A model generated the notes under the pieces. That model made no database searches. It was not told the DNA's origin and was given only the letters and a program-made list of their open reading frames with translations. DNA of 63,099 nucleotides, counting the filler. It is 8 parts of 8 records of this genome, joined end to end, with 100 filler letters (N's around TTAATTAATTAA, not from the genome) between each part and the next. Parts side by side here need not be neighbours in the genome. Positions count along the whole stretch, not along the records: positions 1 to 7,932 come from SRR31156797_19908; 7 more parts are not named here. One strand, 5' to 3'. Both the position numbers and the translations under genes were made by a program. Every line of letters begins with the position of its first letter. Positions within the stretch are counted from its first letter, which is position 1. Shown here in pieces: positions 57 to 57,741 of this stretch.

Positions 57-497
57 TCAGCGGTTTTCTTCCCGGAAAATTTCATCCAGAATAACGGCGG
101 CATCTTTTACGATTTTATCGCAGATTCTTCTTTCACGCAGATATTTTTTTTGGCTGGGATCGGCAGGATCGATCCCGTTATGGATCAGGATGGTGCTGCA
201 TCTCGTGGATTGACGTTTTTGCCTGAACCGGTGGCAGAATTCCTGGGTCAAGGTGATGCTCAGGTCTTTTTTGTACGGATCACGGGTCATGCCGGGGCCG
301 TATTTCAGGCCGATGAGCATAATGGCCACGGTGACGGCTCCGCAGGTTTTGCCCTGGGCAAGGCCGCCGGCAAATCCGGTGGCCAGTTTGGCCGCGGTTT
401 GAGATTCTATATTAAAAAGAGGGGCGTAGGCCATCAGAAAGCCCTCCGTGCAGCTGTAGCCGTCAAGCATCAGTTCGACTGCGGTCTGGGGTGTCAT
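57..497 (-). CDS. C-GCAxxG-C-C family putative redox-active protein
   Basis: Family-like Cys pattern: GYSCTEG, GFAGGLAQGKTCGAV, STRC, ICDKIV. AAGGAA RBS upstream. Confidence 0.8.
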   Translation of the reverse strand: MTPQTAVELMLDGYSCTEGFLMAYAPLFNIESQTAAKLATGFAGGLAQGKTCGAVTVAIMLIGLKYGPGMTRDPYKKDLSITLTQEFCHRFRQKRQSTRCSTILIHNGIDPADPSQKKYLRERRICDKIVKDAAVILDEIFREENR

Positions 498-550: not shown

Positions 551-1150
551 TTACCGGGTGAAGATCCCTTTCAGCAACAGGTCGATCGCTCGGTTGATCC
601 GGTCCCATCCAGCCTCGGATTCGAGGTCGATGCCGCTGATGGATGTGGTAATGCGGGATTTGACTATCAGATGGTTCACAGCGCCGGCCATGAGGGCCAC
701 AATGGCAGACAGGTTGTCATCATCCGGCAGTGTTTCAAGTTGTTCAAAGAATTCCAGGATGGTGCGGATACGCCGTTCCTCCATTTGTTTGGACAGTTCA
801 TTCCGCTCCAGAAGTTCCCAGGCCAGGATGTCCTGGGTCACGGGCCGTTCGCGCAGGGCCGCCATGAACGATTTGAAAAAATGGGCCATCTGCATGTCCG
901 GGGCCAGGGATTTCACTACGTCCGGATCCGGGCCCAGGAGTTCTTCAACCGTGGGCCAGAAATCCACGGCCTGGCTATAGGCGGACACCAGGCCGGGCAG
1001 GCCGTTGAAATACCGGTACACCAGAACTTTGTCCACACCTGCGGTTTTGGCCACCTTGTTAACGCCCAGGCCTTTGAAACCGTGTTTGGCCAGGACGGTT
1101 CCCACGGCTTCGATGAGTTTTTGCCGGGTTTGAGTCTGTCTGTCTTCCAT
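551..1150 (-). CDS. TetR/AcrR family transcriptional regulator
   Basis: N-terminal HTH GFKGLGVNKVAKTAGVDKVLVYRYF. AGGAG RBS. Confidence 0.93.
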   Translation of the reverse strand: MEDRQTQTRQKLIEAVGTVLAKHGFKGLGVNKVAKTAGVDKVLVYRYFNGLPGLVSAYSQAVDFWPTVEELLGPDPDVVKSLAPDMQMAHFFKSFMAALRERPVTQDILAWELLERNELSKQMEERRIRTILEFFEQLETLPDDDNLSAIVALMAGAVNHLIVKSRITTSISGIDLESEAGWDRINRAIDLLLKGIFTR

Positions 1151-1298: not shown

Positions 1299-1365
1299 AT
1301 AACCCTGGGTTATGGCAATCATAATATCAAATCATTTTATTAATCATTGGCCCGAGCGGTATAGT
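1299..1365 (+). promoter_or_regulatory. LysR-type activated promoter 1
   Basis: Palindrome ATAACCC-T-GGGTTAT (1299-1313), 7 bp, ATAATATCAAATCAT (1321-1335), then -10 TATAGT (1360-1365). Confidence 0.7.
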
Positions 1366-1452
1366 TAACAAGAAAACGCATCCATTCATAGGGGACAACC
1401 TTTGTGAAACTTTATCAGATGAATTGATAACACGGCTTAAAAGGAGATACTG

Positions 1453-2196
1453 ATGAAATTATCTAGAGCGTCTGAAAATGATTTAATCAGGGTAATCGAG
1501 GCACTGGAACATTCCCGGGGTGTAAGTGCTGTTGAGACAGCAGCCCAAATGTTTACAGATGCGGTCTATACCGCATTCAATGAGTCCGTTGTACTGGTGA
1601 GGCTGTTTTCCTCACTGCCGCTGTCCAGGCTGCCGCCGGGAGATCAACGGCTTGTCCGGGCCAAAGCCGACCAGGCGGGACTCCCGGATAAGGTCAATGA
1701 CGACATGCCGGTTTTAACCCTCCTGGGCAGCCGGGGAGCACAGCCCCAATGGAACCGCAGGTCCGACTCTGAGATGTTTCGATGCATTCCACTGTTTTCA
1801 TCCGGTTATGTATCGTCGCTGTCCATGCTGGCGGCCCAGTTTCAGTCCATGGCCTTTGATCTCATTTTGCTTGATTCGTGGGGCAAGGTGGTCAGCGGCG
1901 GCAGGGCCGATAAATGGGAAGGCATGCTCTATGTCGGTGATTCTGAAAATGACAGGGACGATCAGGGACGCAGGATCGTGGTTAAACAGGATTTCGTTGT
2001 TGAATACGGTGTCAAAACCTCATTGGGGTTCGGCGGGGGATATGCCCACCATCCGACCGTGATCACCCTGTTTCTGTTTGCAGACGAGTTCATCGAACCG
2101 TCGGTTGGCCAGCGATTTATGGAATTGCTGGAGATTTATAAGGGCATAACCCGTTTGGCAGTCGCTGCGGGTTCCTTTTTCGAGGCAGCGCATTGA
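1453..2196 (+). CDS. Hypothetical protein, stand-alone GAF-like sensory domain
   Basis: 247-aa ORF with AAGGAG RBS. Motifs VLVRLF, LTLLGSRG..PQWN.R, IPL and FVVEYGVKTSLGFGG recall a domain I know from the N-termini of kinases. The domain call is from memory. Confidence 0.5.
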   Translation: MKLSRASENDLIRVIEALEHSRGVSAVETAAQMFTDAVYTAFNESVVLVRLFSSLPLSRLPPGDQRLVRAKADQAGLPDKVNDDMPVLTLLGSRGAQPQWNRRSDSEMFRCIPLFSSGYVSSLSMLAAQFQSMAFDLILLDSWGKVVSGGRADKWEGMLYVGDSENDRDDQGRRIVVKQDFVVEYGVKTSLGFGGGYAHHPTVITLFLFADEFIEPSVGQRFMELLEIYKGITRLAVAAGSFFEAAH

Positions 2197-2287
2197 TCCG
2201 GAATGCCCGGATTAACGTCGGATTTCCATATCGTATTCCAGCCGATCAGACACCGGTCTTACGGTATGGTATTCCGGGCTGTAACCT

Positions 2288-3235
2288 ATGAGAAAAGATC
2301 ATATAAATGTCACCGGAAACGGTATTGTTCTTGCGGTAGCCGCCGGTACCGGCTTCGGCCAGTGGTTTGACATGGCGTGGCTGCGGCAGATCATGCCGGT
2401 GTTCCTCTTCATGATGCTCTATCCGGCCATGCTTGATCTGGATGTAAAACAGATCGGACTGACACTGCATAAACCCGGTGTCGTGCTGACCGCTTTGTTT
2501 ATCAATCTGGTCTTTTCTCCTCTTTTGATCTTTGGATTGCTCCGGCTGTTGTGCGCTGAACAGGATCAGGCGCTGATAGTCGGACTCTTTCTTTACGGTT
2601 CAGTGCCCTGTGGCGCCATGGTGCCGGTCTTTACGGGAATACTCAAAGGAGATGTCGGTCTTTCCACGGCAATTTTGACCCTGTCACTCTTCGGAAGTAT
2701 CGCCATCCTGCCCTTGTGGTCGAAATGTCTTTTGGGGACCGTTGTGTCTATGCCCCTGGGTTCCCTTGCCGCATGTCTTTGCTGTATTATTGCGATTCCG
2801 TTTCTCGCGGCAGTGCTGACCCGCTTTTTTCTTTTCAGAAGACTTGAAGAAAAGGATGGTATCCGGTTCCGTAATTATCTTAAACCGGTTGCTGATTCAG
2901 GATTGATCCTGTTCATCTTTACAGTTTTTTGTCTGAACGGCCGTCAGATTGTTGAGCGTCCGGAAATTATGCTGAGGATCGCTTTTCCGGTCCTTTTGTT
3001 TCTTACCCTTCTGGTCCTGACAGCCCGCCTGGCTGCCGGATGGATGAGCGCTTCACGAGAAGACAGCGTCTCCCTTACTCTGTCCGCAACCCCGAAAAAC
3101 AATGTGGTTTCCATGTCCATGGCCTTGTCCGCATTTGGTACGGATGCGGCGCTGGTTATTTCCATTGCCTGCCTGGTACAGCTGCCTTTTATGCTCAGCT
3201 ATATTAAACTAAGGATCGGCTTCAAAATCACTTAA
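2288..3235 (+). CDS. Acr3-like / bile acid:sodium symporter (SBF/BART) family transporter
   Basis: About 10 hydrophobic segments. Motifs LFMMLYPAML, INLVFSPLL, GSVPCGAMV (Acr3-like conserved Cys), KGDVGL and PKNNVVS. Confidence 0.78.
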   Translation: MRKDHINVTGNGIVLAVAAGTGFGQWFDMAWLRQIMPVFLFMMLYPAMLDLDVKQIGLTLHKPGVVLTALFINLVFSPLLIFGLLRLLCAEQDQALIVGLFLYGSVPCGAMVPVFTGILKGDVGLSTAILTLSLFGSIAILPLWSKCLLGTVVSMPLGSLAACLCCIIAIPFLAAVLTRFFLFRRLEEKDGIRFRNYLKPVADSGLILFIFTVFCLNGRQIVERPEIMLRIAFPVLLFLTLLVLTARLAAGWMSASREDSVSLTLSATPKNNVVSMSMALSAFGTDAALVISIACLVQLPFMLSYIKLRIGFKIT

Positions 3236-3368
3236 ATTTTTGCTTTTAAAATACCCAATCTTTTAATGGGTTTTGGAAGTAATTAGTTTATGTTATTTTG
3301 TAACGATTCCTATTCAACCTTCATCACCGAAAAGCATAGTTTTTGTGAATTCTGGTTGTTCTCCTGGT

Positions 3369-4295
3369 TTATCCACGCTTGATTTCATCCGATATCGCGG
3401 GCAGCAATTCCATTAAAGCCGTTACCGCGTGTGTACGGTACTTATCCCGGAGGCGGGCCGTGTAAAAGGTTCGGGACAAAGCATCGCCGGGAACCGGCAG
3501 GGCTTTTAAAGAACCAGCCGCGATTTCGTCCAGAACCGCGATTTTGGAAAGCAGGGAGATCCCCAGCCCGGCTGCCACCGCTTTTTTAACCGCCTCGGTA
3601 TTCCCGAATTCAACACAGTGTTGCATTGTCATGCCGGCTGACTCCAGAGCCTGTGTCACAGCAGAACGCGTGCCGGATCCTTTTTTAGAAAAAATGATCG
3701 CCTGGTCCCCAAGCTCCCCCAATGAAACCGATTTCCGGTTCACCCAGGGATGTTCCGCAGGGAGTATCAATACCAATTCATCCCTGAATATCGGCCGGAT
3801 GGACAGACGGTCATCCGGATACGGGGCTCCGATAAATCCGATGTCCAGTTCATTGACAATGACCTTCTGGGCCACCTCGCGGCTCAGGGCAATATCAAGG
3901 CTGAATTCGATATCCGGATATGCCCGGCTGTACTGCCCCAGAATACCCGGCAGCAGATAGGTGCCGGCCGTGTAACTGGCCCCGATGGTGATACAGCCCC
4001 CTTTGAGCATTTTCAGATCATCAATTTTTGCCTTGGCCTCTGCGATAGACTCAAACATTTCAGCTGTTGTTTCCAGCAGAATCCGGCCGGCCTGTGTCAG
4101 GCTTACTTTCTTGCTCAGCCTGTCAAAGAGCGGCAAACACATATCCGTCTCCAGCTGTTTGATATGTTTGCTGATACCGGGTTGTGTCAGGCCGAGCGCT
4201 TTCGAGGCCCGGGTAAAACTTCCGGTCTTTGCCACTGCGTGGAAAATCCTGAGCTGGTTCAGGTTGATGTTATGCGTTTTATTTATTAAATCCAT
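3369..4295 (-). CDS. LysR family transcriptional regulator (CysL/CbbR-like)
   Basis: HTH LNQLRIF..VAKTGSFTRASKALGLTQPGISKHIKQLE. Substrate domain GSGTR and NTEAVKKAVAAGLGIS. Confidence 0.95.
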   Translation of the reverse strand: MDLINKTHNINLNQLRIFHAVAKTGSFTRASKALGLTQPGISKHIKQLETDMCLPLFDRLSKKVSLTQAGRILLETTAEMFESIAEAKAKIDDLKMLKGGCITIGASYTAGTYLLPGILGQYSRAYPDIEFSLDIALSREVAQKVIVNELDIGFIGAPYPDDRLSIRPIFRDELVLILPAEHPWVNRKSVSLGELGDQAIIFSKKGSGTRSAVTQALESAGMTMQHCVEFGNTEAVKKAVAAGLGISLLSKIAVLDEIAAGSLKALPVPGDALSRTFYTARLRDKYRTHAVTALMELLPAISDEIKRG

Positions 4296-4337
4296 AAAAA
4301 CAAGTCATTTGAGTTATATATGATTCACGCTTATAGT
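4272..4337 (+). promoter_or_regulatory. LysR-type activated promoter 2 (methyltransferase), overlapping the lysR start
   Basis: ATGCGTTTTATTTAT, 7 bp, ATAAAAACAAGTCAT, then TTGAGT (4309-4314), 17 bp, TATAGT (4332-4337). Confidence 0.75.
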
Positions 4338-4378
4338 GCAACTCTGATTTACACCAACACCTGATATGGAGGACTCAG

Positions 4379-5410
4379 ATGACAACCAGACCGCCCGGAA
4401 AGGAATGTGGAAGAACGGATCAGGCAAGACCGGAAATGATCATGGAAAAGGTGTATGGAATTATCCCGGGCCTGGCATTGCTGGCTGGCCTGGAGCTGGA
4501 TATTTTCAGCCTGCTTGGTGAACAGGCAGCGGATGCACAATCCCTGGCCACATCCATGGATGTCAGCCAGAACCGGCTCCTGCCCCTGCTTAATACCCTG
4601 ACTGTATCCGGACTTCTGATCCAAGATGGCGGTAAGTATTCAAATCGGCCTGAAACCATTGATTTCCTCGTGAGGAACAGATCCGGTTATCATTGCCACA
4701 TCCTCCGGCTCATCCTTAAGATACTGGAGGTTGTTCCCCAAACAGCCCAGACCATCCTACAGGACAGTCCTCAGGCAAAAATGGACTGGACCGGTTTAAC
4801 ACACAACCAGAAACAGTCCTTGCAAAAAGGCCAGTATCACGGCAGTGTCCAGGCCGGAAAAGAGCTTGGTACTGAACTGGATTTGTCCTATGCCCGGACG
4901 GTTTTGGACGGTGCCGGGGGAACCGGCGGGCTATCCGTGGGTTTGGTCCGAAAATGGCCTGATCTTCATATCACGGTGACAGACCTGCCCCAAATGGCCC
5001 GGGCCTGTCGCGAACGAATTTCTTCACTTGGGCTGTCCCACCGGATCACAGTCGCGGATACCGATCTTGTTCGACGGCCACCCCCGGGCCGGTTTGACAC
5101 GGCGATCCTGCGGTCTTTTCTCCAGGTACTTTCCCCGGCAGACGTCCAGGCGGTATTGAGGCATATCCGATCTGCCCTGAATCCGGGCGGGCGGGTGTGC
5201 ATCATCGGCTATTTTGTGGATGATACCCGTCTTTTTCCGGCAAATGCAGCCGCCCATAACCTGGTTTTCCTGAACCTGTATGAGCACGGTCGCGCCTACA
5301 CCGAGGGAAAGTACCGGTCATGGCTTTTAGGGGCGGGGTTTTCCGGTATCAAGGTGCGGTATGATGTATTTTCCGACGGCACCGGGATGATTATGGCCTG
5401 CCGGAACTGA
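4379..5410 (+). CDS. Class I SAM-dependent O-methyltransferase (Methyltransf_2 with dimerisation domain)
   Basis: N-terminal AGLELDIFSLL dimerisation helix, motif I VLDGAGGTG, DLPQM and ALNPGGRV. GGAGGA RBS at 4368-4373. Confidence 0.88.
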   Translation: MTTRPPGKECGRTDQARPEMIMEKVYGIIPGLALLAGLELDIFSLLGEQAADAQSLATSMDVSQNRLLPLLNTLTVSGLLIQDGGKYSNRPETIDFLVRNRSGYHCHILRLILKILEVVPQTAQTILQDSPQAKMDWTGLTHNQKQSLQKGQYHGSVQAGKELGTELDLSYARTVLDGAGGTGGLSVGLVRKWPDLHITVTDLPQMARACRERISSLGLSHRITVADTDLVRRPPPGRFDTAILRSFLQVLSPADVQAVLRHIRSALNPGGRVCIIGYFVDDTRLFPANAAAHNLVFLNLYEHGRAYTEGKYRSWLLGAGFSGIKVRYDVFSDGTGMIMACRN

Positions 5411-5483
5411 CGGCGGTGCGGTTTCCCCTGTTTTGAATCCGACCATATCTGCCTGCTGAATATTGAAAGCTGCTCTGTCCGGG

Positions 5484-6083
5484 CTATGGATGTGGAATTT
5501 CGACATTATCCGGATACCGGCCATGTTTCATTCCGTCAAACCAGATTTTTTTCATTTCAGGGGACATGACTTGAAGCTCATCAAAAACGTCCAATGCAAA
5601 TTCAATTGTACCTAATCCACTCGCGGTAACCACGTGCTTGTCACGTGTTGAAAGAGTGCCTGTATAATCGTCATGACCTGAGTAATCGGGCACCTTGGAT
5701 GAAATATAATCCAGTGAATTGCTTGTATGCTTTCGATTGTGTAAGATTCCGGCCTTGGCTGCCACGGTTGTCGCTGCACAGATTACGCCGATTGGAATAC
5801 CGGCCCTTTCCAGTTGAATGAGAAACGCCTCAATTTCAGCGACGGGGTATTCACCTTCCCACATATTTCCGCCCGGTATAAGAAATAATTGAATATCATC
5901 GATATTGACCTGGGACAGAGCCAGGTCAACACAGACCTTTAATCCGCCCATCGAGGCTACCGGACTGTTATCAAAGCCGACAGTAACGATATCTATTTTT
6001 CCAAAACGGCGCAGTTCAGGCAAGACATGGCCGAGTTCCCAGTCAGCATAGCCGTCAAACAGCAGTGTATAAACGTTTTTCAT
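5484..6083 (-). CDS. DJ-1/PfpI family protein
   Basis: YADWE, SMGGL, IPGG and nucleophile motif ICAAT. Confidence 0.88.
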   Translation of the reverse strand: MKNVYTLLFDGYADWELGHVLPELRRFGKIDIVTVGFDNSPVASMGGLKVCVDLALSQVNIDDIQLFLIPGGNMWEGEYPVAEIEAFLIQLERAGIPIGVICAATTVAAKAGILHNRKHTSNSLDYISSKVPDYSGHDDYTGTLSTRDKHVVTASGLGTIEFALDVFDELQVMSPEMKKIWFDGMKHGRYPDNVEIPHP

Positions 6084-6239
6084 TGGTTTCTCCTATTCCT
6101 GAAATATCCGGGCTAAAGGATGCCGCGTAATTGAATTCTGTTCTATGAATGTCAGAAGAGACCGGTTTTTTCAAGCGTCTTTTCAACCAGGGGCGTCATT
6201 TGCTGTTCACCCACTATCATGAGAAATTTAATCGGAACG

Positions 6240-6960
6240 TTAAGTTATTTTGAGAACCATATATCCGCCAATGACGAAGACTGACAGTTCCGACCGAAAA
6301 GGGCTGTCTGTTTTTAACCTGATATGGCCGCTAAACCTCCCGGCATGGTTTGAAATCCCTGTCACATGCAGGGTATAGCCATTTTTATCTGTATCCAGAT
6401 ACACATCAATTTTTTCTGAAAGCCAGGGGTCGACAACCGTACCCACAATTTTGAAAGGAAACCGCAGGTCAGGCGTTATTCTCGAGACGGCATTTATCGG
6501 CCCCTTGGCCGCACTTCGTAAAAGAATATATTGGGGCTCAATCCGTGCAAAACGTACAACCTTGCTTTTTATGATCAGCCCGACATTTTTGTTTTCAGGG
6601 TCATTGGTGCGAATATGGATGGTTTTAAAGAAACTGCGGCCGCCATATCCGGTGGTATTAAACTTTACAAGAATACTTTCCTTTTCACCTGGCATTATAA
6701 CAGCACAGCTGCACGTGGTCTGTACATCCAGTATCGCCAGCTGAGCCTCTCCCGAGTTACCAATGATCAAGCTGTGAGTGGCTATCTGGCCTTCAATGAG
6801 CTCTCCGAAATCAAATTCATTTTCCAGAATCTGCACTTGCGGCAATCCGGTATTCTTGGGCTGGCTGGCTGGCAGAATCGGTCGCTGCTGCACAATTAAA
6901 GAACAACAGTGAAAAAATAATTAAAAAGATCAATTTTATAGACGAGCGGTCCACCCTCAT
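6240..6960 (-). pseudogene. DUF1573 domain secreted protein, frameshifted
   Basis: DUF1573-like FDFGE..H...GN.G...L.I..VQTTCSC and RTNDP in the 6240..6893 frame. The signal peptide (ATG 6960, AAAGGA RBS) is in another frame ending at TGA 6817. A GCCA tandem repeat lies at 6859-6873. Confidence 0.7.
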
Positions 6961-7053
6961 TTTTCGGTTTCCTTTCTTATGTGATCTGGGTTTTCCGAAG
7001 GTCCCGGAAAAGAAAGTTACAAATCCCTGGGACCTTAATGCTTCTTGCAGCTC

Positions 7054-7494
7054 TTACCTGCCTATTGCTGCTTGTTCCTCTAAAATTTCAGCCAGTATGC
7101 CTGCGGTCCGCCCGGAGAGTCTCTTGCACTTTTCCATATTTTCCTGTTCACCCAGCCGTTCCAGAATCGCTGGACAGTGAATTGATCCCACTTCTTTCAC
7201 AAATTGATCCTGCAGTTTTCCGGCAAGCTTGAAACACCTGGTTTTTGCCTCTTTTATACCGGGCACATCTCTGCCATAAATGTAGCTGATGGCCAGAAGG
7301 GCGCCCGTTAACGCGCCGCATGTCCCGTTATACGGTTTAATTGCACCTCCGCCAAAAGCTGAGGCGACCCGTGGAATGTCAGCGCTTGTTTCACCTGCAT
7401 ATAGTTCCGTAATTACTAAGGCAACGGCTTCAGCGCAGTGAAAACCGCCGTTATGATAGTCATAAGCTCTTTGTTCCGCATCGTTTTTTCTCAT
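7054..7494 (-). CDS. C-GCAxxG-C-C family putative redox-active protein
   Basis: GFHCAEAV, AFGGG, GTCGALTGA, GSIHC and EKCKRL. GGAGG RBS. Confidence 0.88.
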   Translation of the reverse strand: MRKNDAEQRAYDYHNGGFHCAEAVALVITELYAGETSADIPRVASAFGGGAIKPYNGTCGALTGALLAISYIYGRDVPGIKEAKTRCFKLAGKLQDQFVKEVGSIHCPAILERLGEQENMEKCKRLSGRTAGILAEILEEQAAIGR

Positions 7495-7578
7495 TGGGAT
7501 TCCTCCGTTCTTCTAAGTGTTTATTTCTCTGTCAGAAAAAGTGAATAGAGCTAATATGTGATTCGGTTTTTGACCAGT

Positions 7579-7644
7579 AATGTATTCGGGGAAGATGTAT
7601 AACTCAAATGATTTGTTTTTATTATAACGATAATTATAAGTTAT
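7579..7644 (-). promoter_or_regulatory. LysR-type activated promoter 3
   Basis: Minus strand ATAACTTATAATTAT, 7 bp, ATAAAAACAAATCAT, TTGAGT, 17 bp, TACATT. 7598-7622 is 24/25 identical to the reverse complement of 4294-4318. Confidence 0.78.
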
Positions 7645-7932: not shown

Positions 7933-8032
7933 NNNNNNNNNNNNNNNNNNNNNNNNNNNNNNNNNNNNNNNNNNNNTTAATTAATTAANNNNNNNNNNNN
8001 NNNNNNNNNNNNNNNNNNNNNNNNNNNNNNNN
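7933..8032. other. Artificial contig linker
   Basis: N-run with central TTAATTAATTAA, which gives stops in all six frames. Confidence 0.99.
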
Positions 8033-8125
8033 TCCTGTTCTCTTAGTTCTCTTAAGTCTCCTAGTCTCTCTTAGTCTCTCCCAACTCCAGACTCAAAACT
8101 CTATACTCAATACTCAAAACTCTAG
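8033..8125 (-). repeat. Degenerate short tandem repeats (7-mer GAGTWTK, then 9-10-mer GAGARACTAA)
   Basis: Minus strand GAGTTTT GAGTATT GAGTATA GAGTTTT GAGTCTG GAGTTGG GAGAGACTAA GAGAGACTAG..., directly after the DUF2147 stop and running to the contig end. Confidence 0.8.
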
Positions 8126-8550
8126 TCTACCTTATGCCACTCTTGTGTAGCGTAGAACCATCCTATATATCCACGAACAATTAATTTATCACCTTCTCTC
8201 CACAACTTGCAGTCATATACTTTCTTACGCGAAGGAGAAATAATTGCATCATCTGCATACCATTCATCACCATCTTTTTCAAGTCCCCGAATAATATCTA
8301 ATCCTAATAGCGGCTTGTCCTTCCATGGTTGCGGACATTCATCGCATTTCAAAGTTTCAGGATTTGGTTTACTCAAAATCTGAATAATTTTACCATAGAC
8401 TTTACCACTTTTCATATAGACTTCCACAATCGATTTTGCCTCACCTGTCTCATGGTCAAAGGTTTTCCATTTTCCTAATACAGATTGTGCTTGTGCAAAT
8501 GCAACAAATAAAAATAATGTTGCGATAAGTGTTACTATTTTTCTCATCAT
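8122..8550 (-). CDS. DUF2147 domain-containing secreted protein
   Basis: Signal peptide, GKWKT.D..TG.AKSIVE, CDEC, PLLGL.I and VRGYIG.FY.TQ.W. Confidence 0.88.
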   Translation of the reverse strand: MMRKIVTLIATLFLFVAFAQAQSVLGKWKTFDHETGEAKSIVEVYMKSGKVYGKIIQILSKPNPETLKCDECPQPWKDKPLLGLDIIRGLEKDGDEWYADDAIISPSRKKVYDCKLWREGDKLIVRGYIGWFYATQEWHKVD

Positions 8551-8650
8551 TGTATATTTTTATGCGTGAAAATAATAATAAAATTTCATTCGTGTGATTT
8601 TTTATTGTTAGATAATTCATTCTCAAAAAATATAGATTTAATACAGACCA

Positions 8651-10027
8651 ATGATATACGCCATTACAGATATTGAAACCACAGGAGGCAATGCAAGAAG
8701 AGAGAAAATAACTGAAATTGCAATTTACAAATACGATGGTGAAAAAATCATTGACCAGCTGGTTACTTTAGTCAATCCTGAGCGAAATATACCGTTGCAA
8801 ATTCAACAATTAACCGGCATTACAAATGAAATGGTGGCTGATGCACCAAAGTTTTATGAAATCGCAAAACAAATAGTTGAAATAACCGAAGATTGCATTT
8901 TTGTAGCTCACAATTCAGCATTTGATTACAATTTTATACAGCAGGAATTCAAATCTTTGGGCTATGATTTTCAACGACAGCAACTGTGTACTGTAAAGCT
9001 TAGTCGCAAACTACTGCCGGGATTACCTTCCTATAGTTTGGGAATATTATCGCAACAATTAGGCATCGAAATTGAAGCACGCCACAGAGCCTCCGGCGAT
9101 GCATTAGCTACTGTTGAGTTGTTCTCAAAGCTATTAAAAACACATGCAGGACACGATATTACAGACGTCGAAATAGCTGAAGTTCTTAAAGGTTTAAATG
9201 AGAACCTTGACAAAAATGTGCTGAAAACTTTGCCTGAATCAACCGGAGTATATTATTTTTTAGATGAAAACCACACTCCCATTTATATTGGAAAAAGTAT
9301 CAACATCAAAAAACGGGTGCACTCCCATTTCTCCAATAAAAAGTCAACGCGTGCCATTGAAATGAAATCGCAAACGGTGCATATTGACTACGAGATTACA
9401 GGTAGTGAAATGATTGCGTTATTGCACGAGTCAGCGGAAGTTAAAACCCATATGCCCCATTTTAACCGGTTACTGAGACGATCAACTTTTAGTTGGGGAT
9501 TATATGCTCAAACTGATAAAGAAGGTTATATCAACCTCTTATTAAAGCGGGTGAACCAAAAAAACGGAACGGCTAATGTGCTGTTTAGCAATAAGAAAGA
9601 AGCTGAAAATTATTTACACCGGCAAATCGAGGATTATCATCTTTGCCAAAAGCTTTGCGGTGTATATAAATCGAATTCCGAATGTTTTCACCATCAAATT
9701 GGGTTATGCGATGGCGCTTGCATTGGAGAAGAATCAGCGAATGCTTATAATGACCGCGTTTTACAATTTCTTGAGAAAACAACCATCCCCAACGATTCAT
9801 TTTTTATTATTGATAAAGGAAGAAAAAGCCATGAGAAATCTGTAGTTAAAATCTCTCATGGCGTATATCAAGGTTTTGGTTTTTTTGAACCTGAATTAAT
9901 TCAAAGTCCGGATGAATTACATGATTGTATAAACCATGCTGGCGATAATAAAGACGCCCGAACCATCATTAATAGCTTTCTAAGTCGCAATAAATACGAA
10001 AAACTCATTTATTTTAATGAATCATAA
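8651..10027 (+). CDS. DEDDh 3'-5' exonuclease (DnaQ-like) fused to GIY-YIG/UvrC-like nuclease
   Basis: DIETTG, VAHNSAFD and HRASGDA, then LPESTGVYYF, YIGKSINIKKRV and a Cys cluster C..LCG...CFHHQIGLCDGAC. Confidence 0.9.
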   Translation: MIYAITDIETTGGNARREKITEIAIYKYDGEKIIDQLVTLVNPERNIPLQIQQLTGITNEMVADAPKFYEIAKQIVEITEDCIFVAHNSAFDYNFIQQEFKSLGYDFQRQQLCTVKLSRKLLPGLPSYSLGILSQQLGIEIEARHRASGDALATVELFSKLLKTHAGHDITDVEIAEVLKGLNENLDKNVLKTLPESTGVYYFLDENHTPIYIGKSINIKKRVHSHFSNKKSTRAIEMKSQTVHIDYEITGSEMIALLHESAEVKTHMPHFNRLLRRSTFSWGLYAQTDKEGYINLLLKRVNQKNGTANVLFSNKKEAENYLHRQIEDYHLCQKLCGVYKSNSECFHHQIGLCDGACIGEESANAYNDRVLQFLEKTTIPNDSFFIIDKGRKSHEKSVVKISHGVYQGFGFFEPELIQSPDELHDCINHAGDNKDARTIINSFLSRNKYEKLIYFNES

Positions 10028-20434: not shown

Positions 20435-20534
20435 NNNNNNNNNNNNNNNNNNNNNNNNNNNNNNNNNNNNNNNNNNNNTTAATTAATTAANNNNNNNNNN
20501 NNNNNNNNNNNNNNNNNNNNNNNNNNNNNNNNNN
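20435..20534. other. Artificial contig linker
   Basis: N44-TTAATTAATTAA-N44. Confidence 0.99.
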
Positions 20535-28421: not shown

Positions 28422-28521
28422 NNNNNNNNNNNNNNNNNNNNNNNNNNNNNNNNNNNNNNNNNNNNTTAATTAATTAANNNNNNNNNNNNNNNNNNNNNNN
28501 NNNNNNNNNNNNNNNNNNNNN
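28422..28521. other. Artificial contig linker
   Basis: N44-TTAATTAATTAA-N44. Confidence 0.99.
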
Positions 28522-36320: not shown

Positions 36321-36420
36321 NNNNNNNNNNNNNNNNNNNNNNNNNNNNNNNNNNNNNNNNNNNNTTAATTAATTAANNNNNNNNNNNNNNNNNNNNNNNN
36401 NNNNNNNNNNNNNNNNNNNN
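36321..36420. other. Artificial contig linker
   Basis: N44-TTAATTAATTAA-N44. Confidence 0.99.
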
Positions 36421-43389: not shown

Positions 43390-43489
43390 NNNNNNNNNNN
43401 NNNNNNNNNNNNNNNNNNNNNNNNNNNNNNNNNTTAATTAATTAANNNNNNNNNNNNNNNNNNNNNNNNNNNNNNNNNNNNNNNNNNNN
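43390..43489. other. Artificial contig linker
   Basis: N44-TTAATTAATTAA-N44. Confidence 0.99.
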
Positions 43490-49135: not shown

Positions 49136-49235
49136 NNNNNNNNNNNNNNNNNNNNNNNNNNNNNNNNNNNNNNNNNNNNTTAATTAATTAANNNNNNNNN
49201 NNNNNNNNNNNNNNNNNNNNNNNNNNNNNNNNNNN
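49136..49235. other. Artificial contig linker
   Basis: N44-TTAATTAATTAA-N44. Confidence 0.99.
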
Positions 49236-57641: not shown

Positions 57642-57741
57642 NNNNNNNNNNNNNNNNNNNNNNNNNNNNNNNNNNNNNNNNNNNNTTAATTAATTAANNN
57701 NNNNNNNNNNNNNNNNNNNNNNNNNNNNNNNNNNNNNNNNN
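57642..57741. other. Artificial contig linker
   Basis: N44-TTAATTAATTAA-N44. Confidence 0.99.

Follow-up and report, generated by a model that had tools for sequence, protein, structure and literature searches.

Can a single LysR-type regulator tie together promoters that lie scattered along one short contig? The question is raised by a 63,099-nucleotide stretch of DNA (the window, by which we mean the whole stretch that was analysed), in which eight contigs are joined by linkers; the finding described here is confined to the first of them, contig 1 (1..7932, GC content 0.49). A first-pass annotation had drawn attention to three regions of this contig, here called sites 1, 2 and 3, that share two boxes followed by -35 and -10 hexamers, and had proposed that the LysR protein encoded at 3369-4295 co-induces the genes behind them. 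Our comparison with other genomes suggests that the three elements are very probably operators of this regulator, and that three transcription units are joined by them in one regulon.

The two-box element and its conservation

The two-box, -35/-10 architecture was present at all three regions, with each feature at the coordinates first described for it (Table 1). Box 1 is 15 bp long and of the form AT...AT, and a 7-bp spacer separates it from the 17-bp box 2 at every site. The hexamer TTGAGT lies 17 bp upstream of the -10 at sites 2 and 3, and the distance from the start of box 2 to the start of the -10 is 38 nt at these two sites and 39 nt at site 1. Box 1 of site 1 is a near-perfect dyad. 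Site 2 forms the divergent control region of lysR and an O-methyltransferase gene, and its box 2 overlaps the lysR ATG (4295-4293), as had been noted earlier. The previously reported inverted identity of 24/25 was also confirmed: 4294-4318 and 7598-7622, once the latter is reverse-complemented, have one mismatch in 25 positions. Indeed, the two longest inverted repeats of contig 1 are the site elements themselves: one of 35 nt at 74% (I1), and one of 28 nt at 93% (I2) that pairs 4294-4321 with 7595-7622. All three sites are intergenic and oriented toward the downstream gene, and transcription is predicted to start near 1372, 4344 and 7572 for sites 1, 2 and 3, respectively. The promoter at site 2 was also included in a promoter listing of the sequence. 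The ambiguity-code (IUPAC) pattern that the first-pass annotation gave for box 2 matches the window exactly three times, at 1321-1337 (+), 4294-4310 (+) and 7606-7622 (-), which is uninformative by itself, as these sites were the source of the pattern.

Relatives of the regulator number in the thousands, the closest being 83, 70 and 67% identical and followed by a large group at 45-57%. Using an alignment of 32 relatives as the query, we collected 80 loci encoding LysR orthologues from species-representative genomes of several phyla, with at most 8 kb of flank per side and 1,162,333 bases in total. The box-2 pattern, with up to two mismatches allowed, matched in 53 of the 80 loci, once in each, within ~50 bp of the regulator start and always on the strand opposite to the regulator; there was no match elsewhere in the collected sequence. 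A weighted matrix was then built from those 53 sites in other genomes, with the window sites excluded. Its information is concentrated in four peaks: ATnA-N5-AGTTAT at positions 0-14; ATnAAAACAAnTCATTT then GAnTyAT at positions 22-45, within which box 2 takes up positions 22-38; TTGAnT at positions 37-42; and TAnnnT at positions 60-65. Between these peaks the information is near zero, which argues for selection on contacts rather than common ancestry of the whole stretch.

The motif search upstream of orthologues that the first-pass annotation had proposed gave a positive result. With a 46-nt version of the matrix, a site was detected at the regulator start in 72 of the 80 loci, at 20.3-64.4 bits (median 53.6), while the best score away from the regulator start in any locus was 13.7 bits. 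Three of the eight loci missed by this matrix have no upstream DNA in their record, and in the other five the element has diverged but keeps its register. Cultivable relatives that have the operator include Desulfosudis oleivorans and Geomonas (loci L026, L075 and L078). Applied to the 63-kb window, the 46-nt matrix returned site 3 (59.9 bits), site 2 (48.7 bits) and site 1 (40.4 bits) as its top three matches, and the rest of the window scored at most 8.5 bits. A two-box matrix gave 50.8, 39.5 and 35.9 bits for sites 3, 2 and 1; its next match, at 13.4 bits, is a palindromic overlap of site 3, and unrelated background reached no more than 10.5 bits. From box 2 through the -35, site 3 has 25 consecutive bases identical to the operator of a Desulfosarcinaceae locus (L004). 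Collectively, the matrix matches in the loci and in the window indicate that the element is real, under selection and specific to this LysR clade.

Some of the orthologue loci had unusual regulator genes. In L063, the LysR copy (8001-8834) has two in-frame stops and is a probable pseudogene, with an operator that still scores 56.5 bits. In L019 and L036 (8001-8051), the tblastn match runs upstream across stop codons, suggesting that the real start lies later.

Table 1. Coordinates of the predicted operator sites and of the genes on contig 1.
Feature	Coordinates	Strand	Details
Site 1	1299-1365	+	box 1 1299-1313; 7-bp spacer; box 2 1321-1337; -10 TATAGT 1360-1365
Site 2	4272-4337	+	box 1 4272-4286; box 2 4294-4310; -35 TTGAGT 4309-4314; -10 TATAGT 4332-4337
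Site 3	7579-7644	-	box 1 7644-7630; box 2 7622-7606; -35 TTGAGT 7607-7602; -10 TACATT 7584-7579
C_GCAxxG_C_C protein	57-497	-	
TetR regulator	551-1150	-	
GAF-like protein	1453-2196	+	247 aa; no family in Pfam or in NCBIfam; first gene behind site 1
SBF/BASS transporter	2288-3235	+	315 aa; distantly ACR3-like; Pfam SBF 5.2e-32
LysR-type regulator	3369-4295	-	308 aa; Pfam HTH_1 and LysR_substrate
O-methyltransferase	4379-5410	+	343 aa; Methyltransf_2 and Dimerisation domain; gene behind site 2
DJ-1/PfpI protein	5484-6083	-	
DUF1573 / OS_HP2-like protein	6240-6893	-	
Second C_GCAxxG_C_C protein	7054-7494	-	146 aa; all-Cys form; first gene behind site 3

The regulator, its family and the genes behind the operator

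The regulator is LysR-type, with matches to PF00126 (2.1e-22, residues 12-71) and PF03466 (2.3e-52, residues 100-298). Its best match in NCBIfam was NF040786, at 249.6 bits with a cut-off of 250, followed by YeiE (NF040889) at 211 bits, and several of its close relatives are labelled 'selenium metabolism-associated LysR' by NCBI. When NF040786 was run on 79 orthologue segments, 26 matched at E <=1e-68 and 16 reached 250 bits; segments from Desulfobacterota and Syntrophales scored 235-268 bits and acidobacterial ones fell below the cut-off. Since few segments reach the cut-off and most loci have the operator, the operator extends over a broader clade than the family as curated. All 32 aligned relatives (32/32) share the recognition-helix stretch LTQPG[IV]SKH, and an invariant recognition helix is consistent with a conserved DNA motif.

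NF040786 leads to a family, LysR_Se, that was proposed in 2015 from selA/selB/selD neighbourhoods and was expected to regulate selenium-related genes; as the accessible text of that proposal describes it, the family is confined to SelD-containing organisms that mostly decode selenocysteine (Sec), and its genes often lie beside selA/selB/selD (PMC5322559). Its characterised member is archaeal HrsM, which according to the accessible parts of these papers controls Cys-type isogenes (PMC5322559; PMC9312934; PMC11097638) and acts as a repressor at the frc-vhc intergenic region when selenium is adequate (PMC11097638; PMC5322559). The window regulator resembles this group in its best family match and in the names given to its close relatives. 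It differs in that Pfam and NCBIfam scans detected no Sec-machinery gene on the 7.9-kb contig 1, and in having C_GCAxxG_C_C, SBF, GAF-like and O-methyltransferase genes as putative targets in place of sel genes or hydrogenases. The accessible parts of these papers give no operator motif for LysR_Se, and the term 'binding site' is absent from Lin 2015 (PMC5322559). YeiE, the closest relative with a name in Escherichia coli and the subject of the second-best NCBIfam model, shares the divergent layout of regulator and membrane protein gene (yeiH) and differs from the window regulator in its recognition helix. The idea that the YeiE operator is the same motif was rejected, as the yeiE-yeiH spacer scored only 7.7 bits with the two-box matrix.

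We next considered the genes that lie behind the operator in other genomes. First divergent open reading frames (ORFs) numbered 68 in the 72 loci; Pfam was run on 29 of them, the other 39 being mostly acidobacterial ORFs that are short or doubtful. C_GCAxxG_C_C proteins accounted for 14 of the 29 and LysE exporters, in Geobacterales, for six. The remainder comprised CMD (AhpD-like) and TauE proteins (two each), a Methyltransf_2 O-methyltransferase (L026), an AhpC/TSA protein and a DUF6125 protein (one each), and two proteins without a family.

Operon structures were established by tblastn with the window proteins and by ORF inspection. In L007 (Syntrophales), the operator is followed by C_GCAxxG_C_C, SBF and then a homologue of the 1453-2196 protein with 47% identity, and in L010, L015 and L051 C_GCAxxG_C_C is likewise followed by SBF. 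The operon of Desulfosudis oleivorans (L026) consists of an O-methyltransferase (40% identity) and then C_GCAxxG_C_C, while that of L004 starts with a C_GCAxxG_C_C protein 52% identical to the 7054-7494 protein and continues with a small methyltransferase. This recurrence suggests that four gene families of the window belong to a conserved co-regulated set, which in the window is split over three predicted units, each with its own operator copy. Because sites 1 and 3 lie far from any LysR gene and yet preserve the two boxes with their spacer and promoter register, the element is a portable cis-module and not just the leader of the regulator gene. The local LysR regulon inferred in the first-pass annotation is therefore supported by both the operator at the orthologue start in 72 of 80 loci and the recurrence of the target families.

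Further gene arrangements were seen in individual loci. In L001 (Desulfobacula, 590-790), the C_GCAxxG_C_C gene beside lysR has a ~100-bp tandem duplication over its ribosome-binding region and first codons, giving a 181-aa ORF with a repeated N-terminus. In the Syntrophales loci L011 (4203-7478) and L015 (3990-7462), the operator-linked C_GCAxxG_C_C gene is followed by a DsrC-like domain, an HmcE/TmcC-like membrane subunit and a CCG/4Fe-4S (DsrK/HdrD-like) protein; the DsrC-like domain lies within the SBF ORF in L015, and L011 also has TauE. This gene set looks like a sulfur- or selenium-relay module.

Families with selenoprotein members include C_GCAxxG_C_C, DUF1573, DUF3179 and AhpC/TSA, as listed in the accessible text of PMC9312934. 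Every target encountered in this analysis is a Cys form. Reading the first target genes through TGA revealed none that contains Sec, as 'U' occurred only at real stops and was followed by noise. The CMD/AhpD-like family also has selenoprotein members.

At 23 loci, mostly from metagenome-assembled genomes of Acidobacteriaceae, the first gene is an ORF of 60-75 aa that lies ~50-100 nt beyond the operator (L019, L020, L024, L027, L028, L031, L036, L038, L039, L041-L043, L049, L050, L052, L054, L057, L059, L063, L067, L069, L071 and L073). We rejected the possibility that these acidobacterial ORFs of ~60 aa are truncated selenoproteins, as 22 of the 23 end in TAA or TAG. They have a conserved C-terminus ending in G-x-[ML]-P-[AT], and four of the peptides had no NCBIfam family. 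They make up an unnamed small-protein family, putatively under the same LysR.

Operator geometry, proposed mechanism and rival explanations

With the -10 TAnnnT taken as the anchor, the predicted start lies ~7 nt later, at matrix position 72. Relative to this start, box 1, a dyad of the T-N11-A type, is centred near -65 and box 2 near -43, so that the boxes are 22 bp, or about two helical turns, apart. Box 2 is less symmetric and overlaps the -35 TTGAnT in the family. Sites 2 and 3 show the same overlap, and site 1 reads TTTATT at that position; site 2 keeps the register of the family operator. Box 1 overlaps the regulator ATG in 64 of the 72 family sites, which is the usual place of a site for negative autoregulation by a transcriptional regulator of the LysR type (LTTR). 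In the LTTR model, as set out in the accessible text of PMC11495319, a recognition site at ~-65 with an imperfect T-N11-A dyad is accompanied by an activation site that overlaps the -35.

The classical LTTR control regions (BenM, CbnR, DntR and OccR, with the 'sliding dimer') thus offer a close likeness: a dyad recognition site ~65 nt upstream of the start, a second site reaching the -35, and a divergent regulator gene with a site over its own start, the last of which is found here at site 2. They differ from the present system in that its box sequences are clade-specific and box 1 lies over the regulator ATG in most members, and in that the window has a lysR ORF running through box 1 and three copies of the element at three units within 6.3 kb. 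BenM has three sites ~21 bp apart. In the LysR clade studied here, matrix positions 44-45, which lie 22 bp past box 2, have a conserved AT that may mark a weak third site.

Relative to Desulfobacula L001, the lysR ORF at 3369-4295 has an 8-codon N-terminal extension through box 1. The position of the L001 ATG (877-882) reads ACG in the window, and the extension is common to the 83%-identical relative P0003. As a consequence of the extension, box 1 falls in codons 4-8 and the lysR promoter would lie further into the spacer, where TTGGTG-17-TATAAG on the minus strand (~4358-4330) is a weak candidate.

In the mechanism that we favour, the regulator would control a GAF-like and SBF unit, the O-methyltransferase gene divergent from lysR, and a C_GCAxxG_C_C unit that possibly includes the DUF1573 and DJ-1 genes. 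A tetramer (dimer of dimers) would occupy both boxes, with tight binding at box 1 and weaker binding at box 2, and would contact RNA polymerase at the imperfect -35. With a small effector bound, it would activate moderately weak sigma-70 promoters, and at site 2 the same complex over the lysR start would limit its own synthesis. Given binding, activation seems the somewhat likelier sign of control. Selenium or a reactive sulfur/selenium species is suggested as the effector by the name of the family and by the types of genes targeted, which include thiol redox proteins of selenoprotein-containing families, methyltransferases and exporters. The stretches GSGTR and GASxTxG, invariant in the aligned relatives, may indicate an anionic ligand.

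Several observations weigh against this interpretation, which should be read with these in mind. At the level of the sites, site 1 has a weak -35 (TTTATT at 1336-1341) with 18-bp spacing to the -10, and box 1 of site 2 is degenerate and falls within the extended part of the lysR reading frame. The matrix seeds were chosen with the window-derived pattern, which leaves the box-2 columns partly dependent on it; columns for box 1, the spacer, the -35 and the -10 are independent of that pattern. No second site was found in any of the 72 loci with the 46-nt matrix in flanks of up to 8 kb per side, so the multi-promoter arrangement was found in the window only. The DJ-1, DUF1573 and TetR proteins had no counterpart in the other LysR loci by tblastn with the window proteins. 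The activating role is assumed from geometry, whereas the archaeal relative HrsM is described as a repressor, and the promoter positions, binding and expression are all predictions from sequence. As for selenium, the regulator falls 0.4 bits under the NF040786 cut-off, 16 of 79 orthologue segments reach that cut-off compared to 72 of 80 loci with the operator, contig 1 has no Sec-machinery gene as described above, and the link itself comes from the family name and one comparative paper.

The main rival on the sign of control keeps the same sites and the same regulator and reverses the outcome: LysR would repress when the effector is present, in the manner of HrsM at Cys-type hydrogenase genes. 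HrsM binds the frc-vhc intergenic region under selenium-adequate conditions, according to the accessible parts of two papers (PMC11097638; PMC5322559), the -35 has its first bases within box 2, and the targets are Cys forms of families that also have Sec members, all of which would suit a repressor. The box centres near -65 and -43, by contrast, are the activating geometry of classical LTTRs, and imperfect -35 hexamers such as TTGAGT and TTTATT are typical of activator-dependent promoters. Neither point is decisive, and we regard repression as a credible but less probable outcome. A separate possibility, that the element is a promoter or UP-element module or the site of some other, unlinked factor for which lysR is merely one target, draws on the fact that TTGAnT, TAnnnT and A/T-rich upstream DNA are in part ordinary promoter signals. 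Linkage to one regulator clade and overlap with the ATG in 64 of 72 sites are instead what marks a factor that regulates its own gene, an LTTR tetramer fits two boxes of the T-N11-A type with 22-bp spacing at ~-65/-43, and the low score of the E. coli yeiE-yeiH spacer (7.7 bits) argues for clade specificity. This makes control by an unlinked factor improbable.

Two further explanations dispense with a regulator. The elements could be ends or relics of a mobile element (an insertion sequence or a miniature inverted-repeat transposable element), with sites 2 and 3 as inverted repeats around a 3.3-kb cassette, and the 28-nt inverted pair at 93% (4294-4321 and 7595-7622) does enclose four genes. 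The first-pass annotation had named such an origin among the cases that would overturn its reading. It was not supported, as 72 of the 80 loci, from several phyla, have one copy each, fixed at the start of the LysR gene, and their flanks contain no other. Pfam and NCBIfam scans detected no transposase or integrase on contig 1, and a search of 72,556 plasmid records with site 3 in distant mode returned no match. Furthermore, 25 nt of site 3 are identical in L004 although the regulators are only ~51% identical, which suggests constraint rather than recent copying. We consider a mobile origin very improbable on these grounds. Chance likeness of A/T-rich intergenic DNA could be entertained from the box-2 pattern alone, which at two mismatches gave a mean of 0.67 matches per shuffled window and three or more in 4 of 100 shuffles. 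The real matches, however, are exact, are co-oriented with the downstream genes and extend over ~45 nt, and the matrix from other genomes gave them 40-60 bits compared to at most 8.5 bits in the rest of the 63 kb. Chance was therefore rejected on the orthologue-locus and matrix results, and we give it practically no weight.

Neighbouring features and significance of the proposed regulon

The protein encoded at 1453-2196 lies directly behind site 1, and its description as GAF-like holds at the level of the fold. Neither Pfam, including its GAF models, nor NCBIfam gave a sequence match. The top PDB matches of its structure model (pLDDT 90) in Foldseek are nearly all GAF or phytochrome GAF domains, at E 3.6e-5 and weaker and TM only ~0.45. 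There are 749 representative relatives, and the closest, P0123, is 77% identical; of ten longer than 400 aa that were scanned, one has BTAD and the other nine have histidine-kinase, receiver, Hpt, PAS, cyclase or globin domains. The protein is probably a small-ligand-binding module. The family has a near-invariant Cys in FRCIPL (8/9 aligned sequences), followed by an invariant I-P-L, and this Cys is a possible attachment point for a ligand or cofactor.

The remaining genes of the predicted units were assigned from position. The SBF transporter gene starts 91 bp past the GAF-like gene, and because of this short gap the two probably share one transcript; the acr3 model gave the transporter 103 bits, with a cut-off of 282.8. 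The O-methyltransferase gene has GGAGG 7 nt ahead of its ATG. Behind site 3, the DUF1573 gene is co-oriented with the C_GCAxxG_C_C gene at 7054-7494 and lies 94 bp downstream of it, with the DJ-1 gene 156 bp beyond. From position alone, DUF1573 is a possible operon member, and the transcript from site 3 may end with DJ-1. With its signal-peptide part the DUF1573 gene covers 6240-6960, and it looks frameshifted at 6817-6960, where a signal-peptide-like ORF runs from an ATG at 6960 to a stop at 6817 and the frame of the domain is open from 6920; the split frames reflect either a sequencing error or a pseudogene. Rfam gave no matches on contig 1, so that the long leaders are not explained by a known RNA element.

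At the other end of the contig, 509-538 and 1168-1197 are the copies of a direct repeat (30 nt, 83%), the core of which is a 15-bp palindrome of the type GTCACCAnTGGTGAC. The tetR gene has one copy immediately upstream, the other lies between tetR and the C_GCAxxG_C_C gene at 57-497, and the repeat is unrelated to the LysR element. It probably marks a separate TetR-controlled unit with a paralogue of a predicted LysR target. Elsewhere in the window, each linker (7933-8032, 20435-20534, 28422-28521, 36321-36420, 43390-43489, 49136-49235 and 57642-57741) consists of N44, a 12-base all-frame stop and N44. The GC content of the other seven contigs is 0.30-0.39 in six and 0.48 in the last, and the resulting spread of 0.30-0.49 suggests that adjoining contigs of the window may come from different organisms.

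The kind of system described here is textbook, and its mechanism is ordinary LTTR biology. What seems new is the operator motif of this clade together with its conserved co-regulated gene set, and the motif appears to be unpublished. In open-access full text, 'LysR_Se' occurred only in the 2015 proposal, in reviews and in unrelated uses; 'GCAxxG' together with 'LysR' occurred in a review only; 'selenium metabolism-associated LysR' occurred only as a gene label in unrelated work; and the combination of LysR, selenite and T-N11-A returned nothing. Neither an operator motif nor a defined bacterial regulon for LysR_Se was found in the searchable open-access literature.

Through the regulon, several widespread and functionally uncharacterised proteins would be connected to a single signal, namely C_GCAxxG_C_C proteins, an SBF/ACR3-like transporter, a stand-alone GAF-like family and an O-methyltransferase, and their function would become open to experiment. 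True sites score 20-64 bits and background <14 bits with the 46-nt matrix, which can be used on any genome to list the regulon, and the operator sites supply exact DNA probes for binding and effector screens. For a poorly known, selenium-linked LysR family, the operator would give a testable first view of what it controls. A bolder reading, which we put forward tentatively and hold to be unlikely as it stands, is that the element is the operator of a bacterial LysR_Se-like clade that runs a selenium-responsive (or reactive sulfur/selenium-responsive) programme. If true, the programme would comprise Cys-type C_GCAxxG_C_C, DUF1573/OS_HP2, DUF3179, AhpC/Prx-like and CMD/AhpD-like proteins along with methyltransferases and SBF/TauE/LysE exporters. 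Bacteria would then have an equivalent of the Sec/Cys switch that HrsM provides in methanogens, and C_GCAxxG_C_C proteins and the new GAF-like family would gain a first physiological context.

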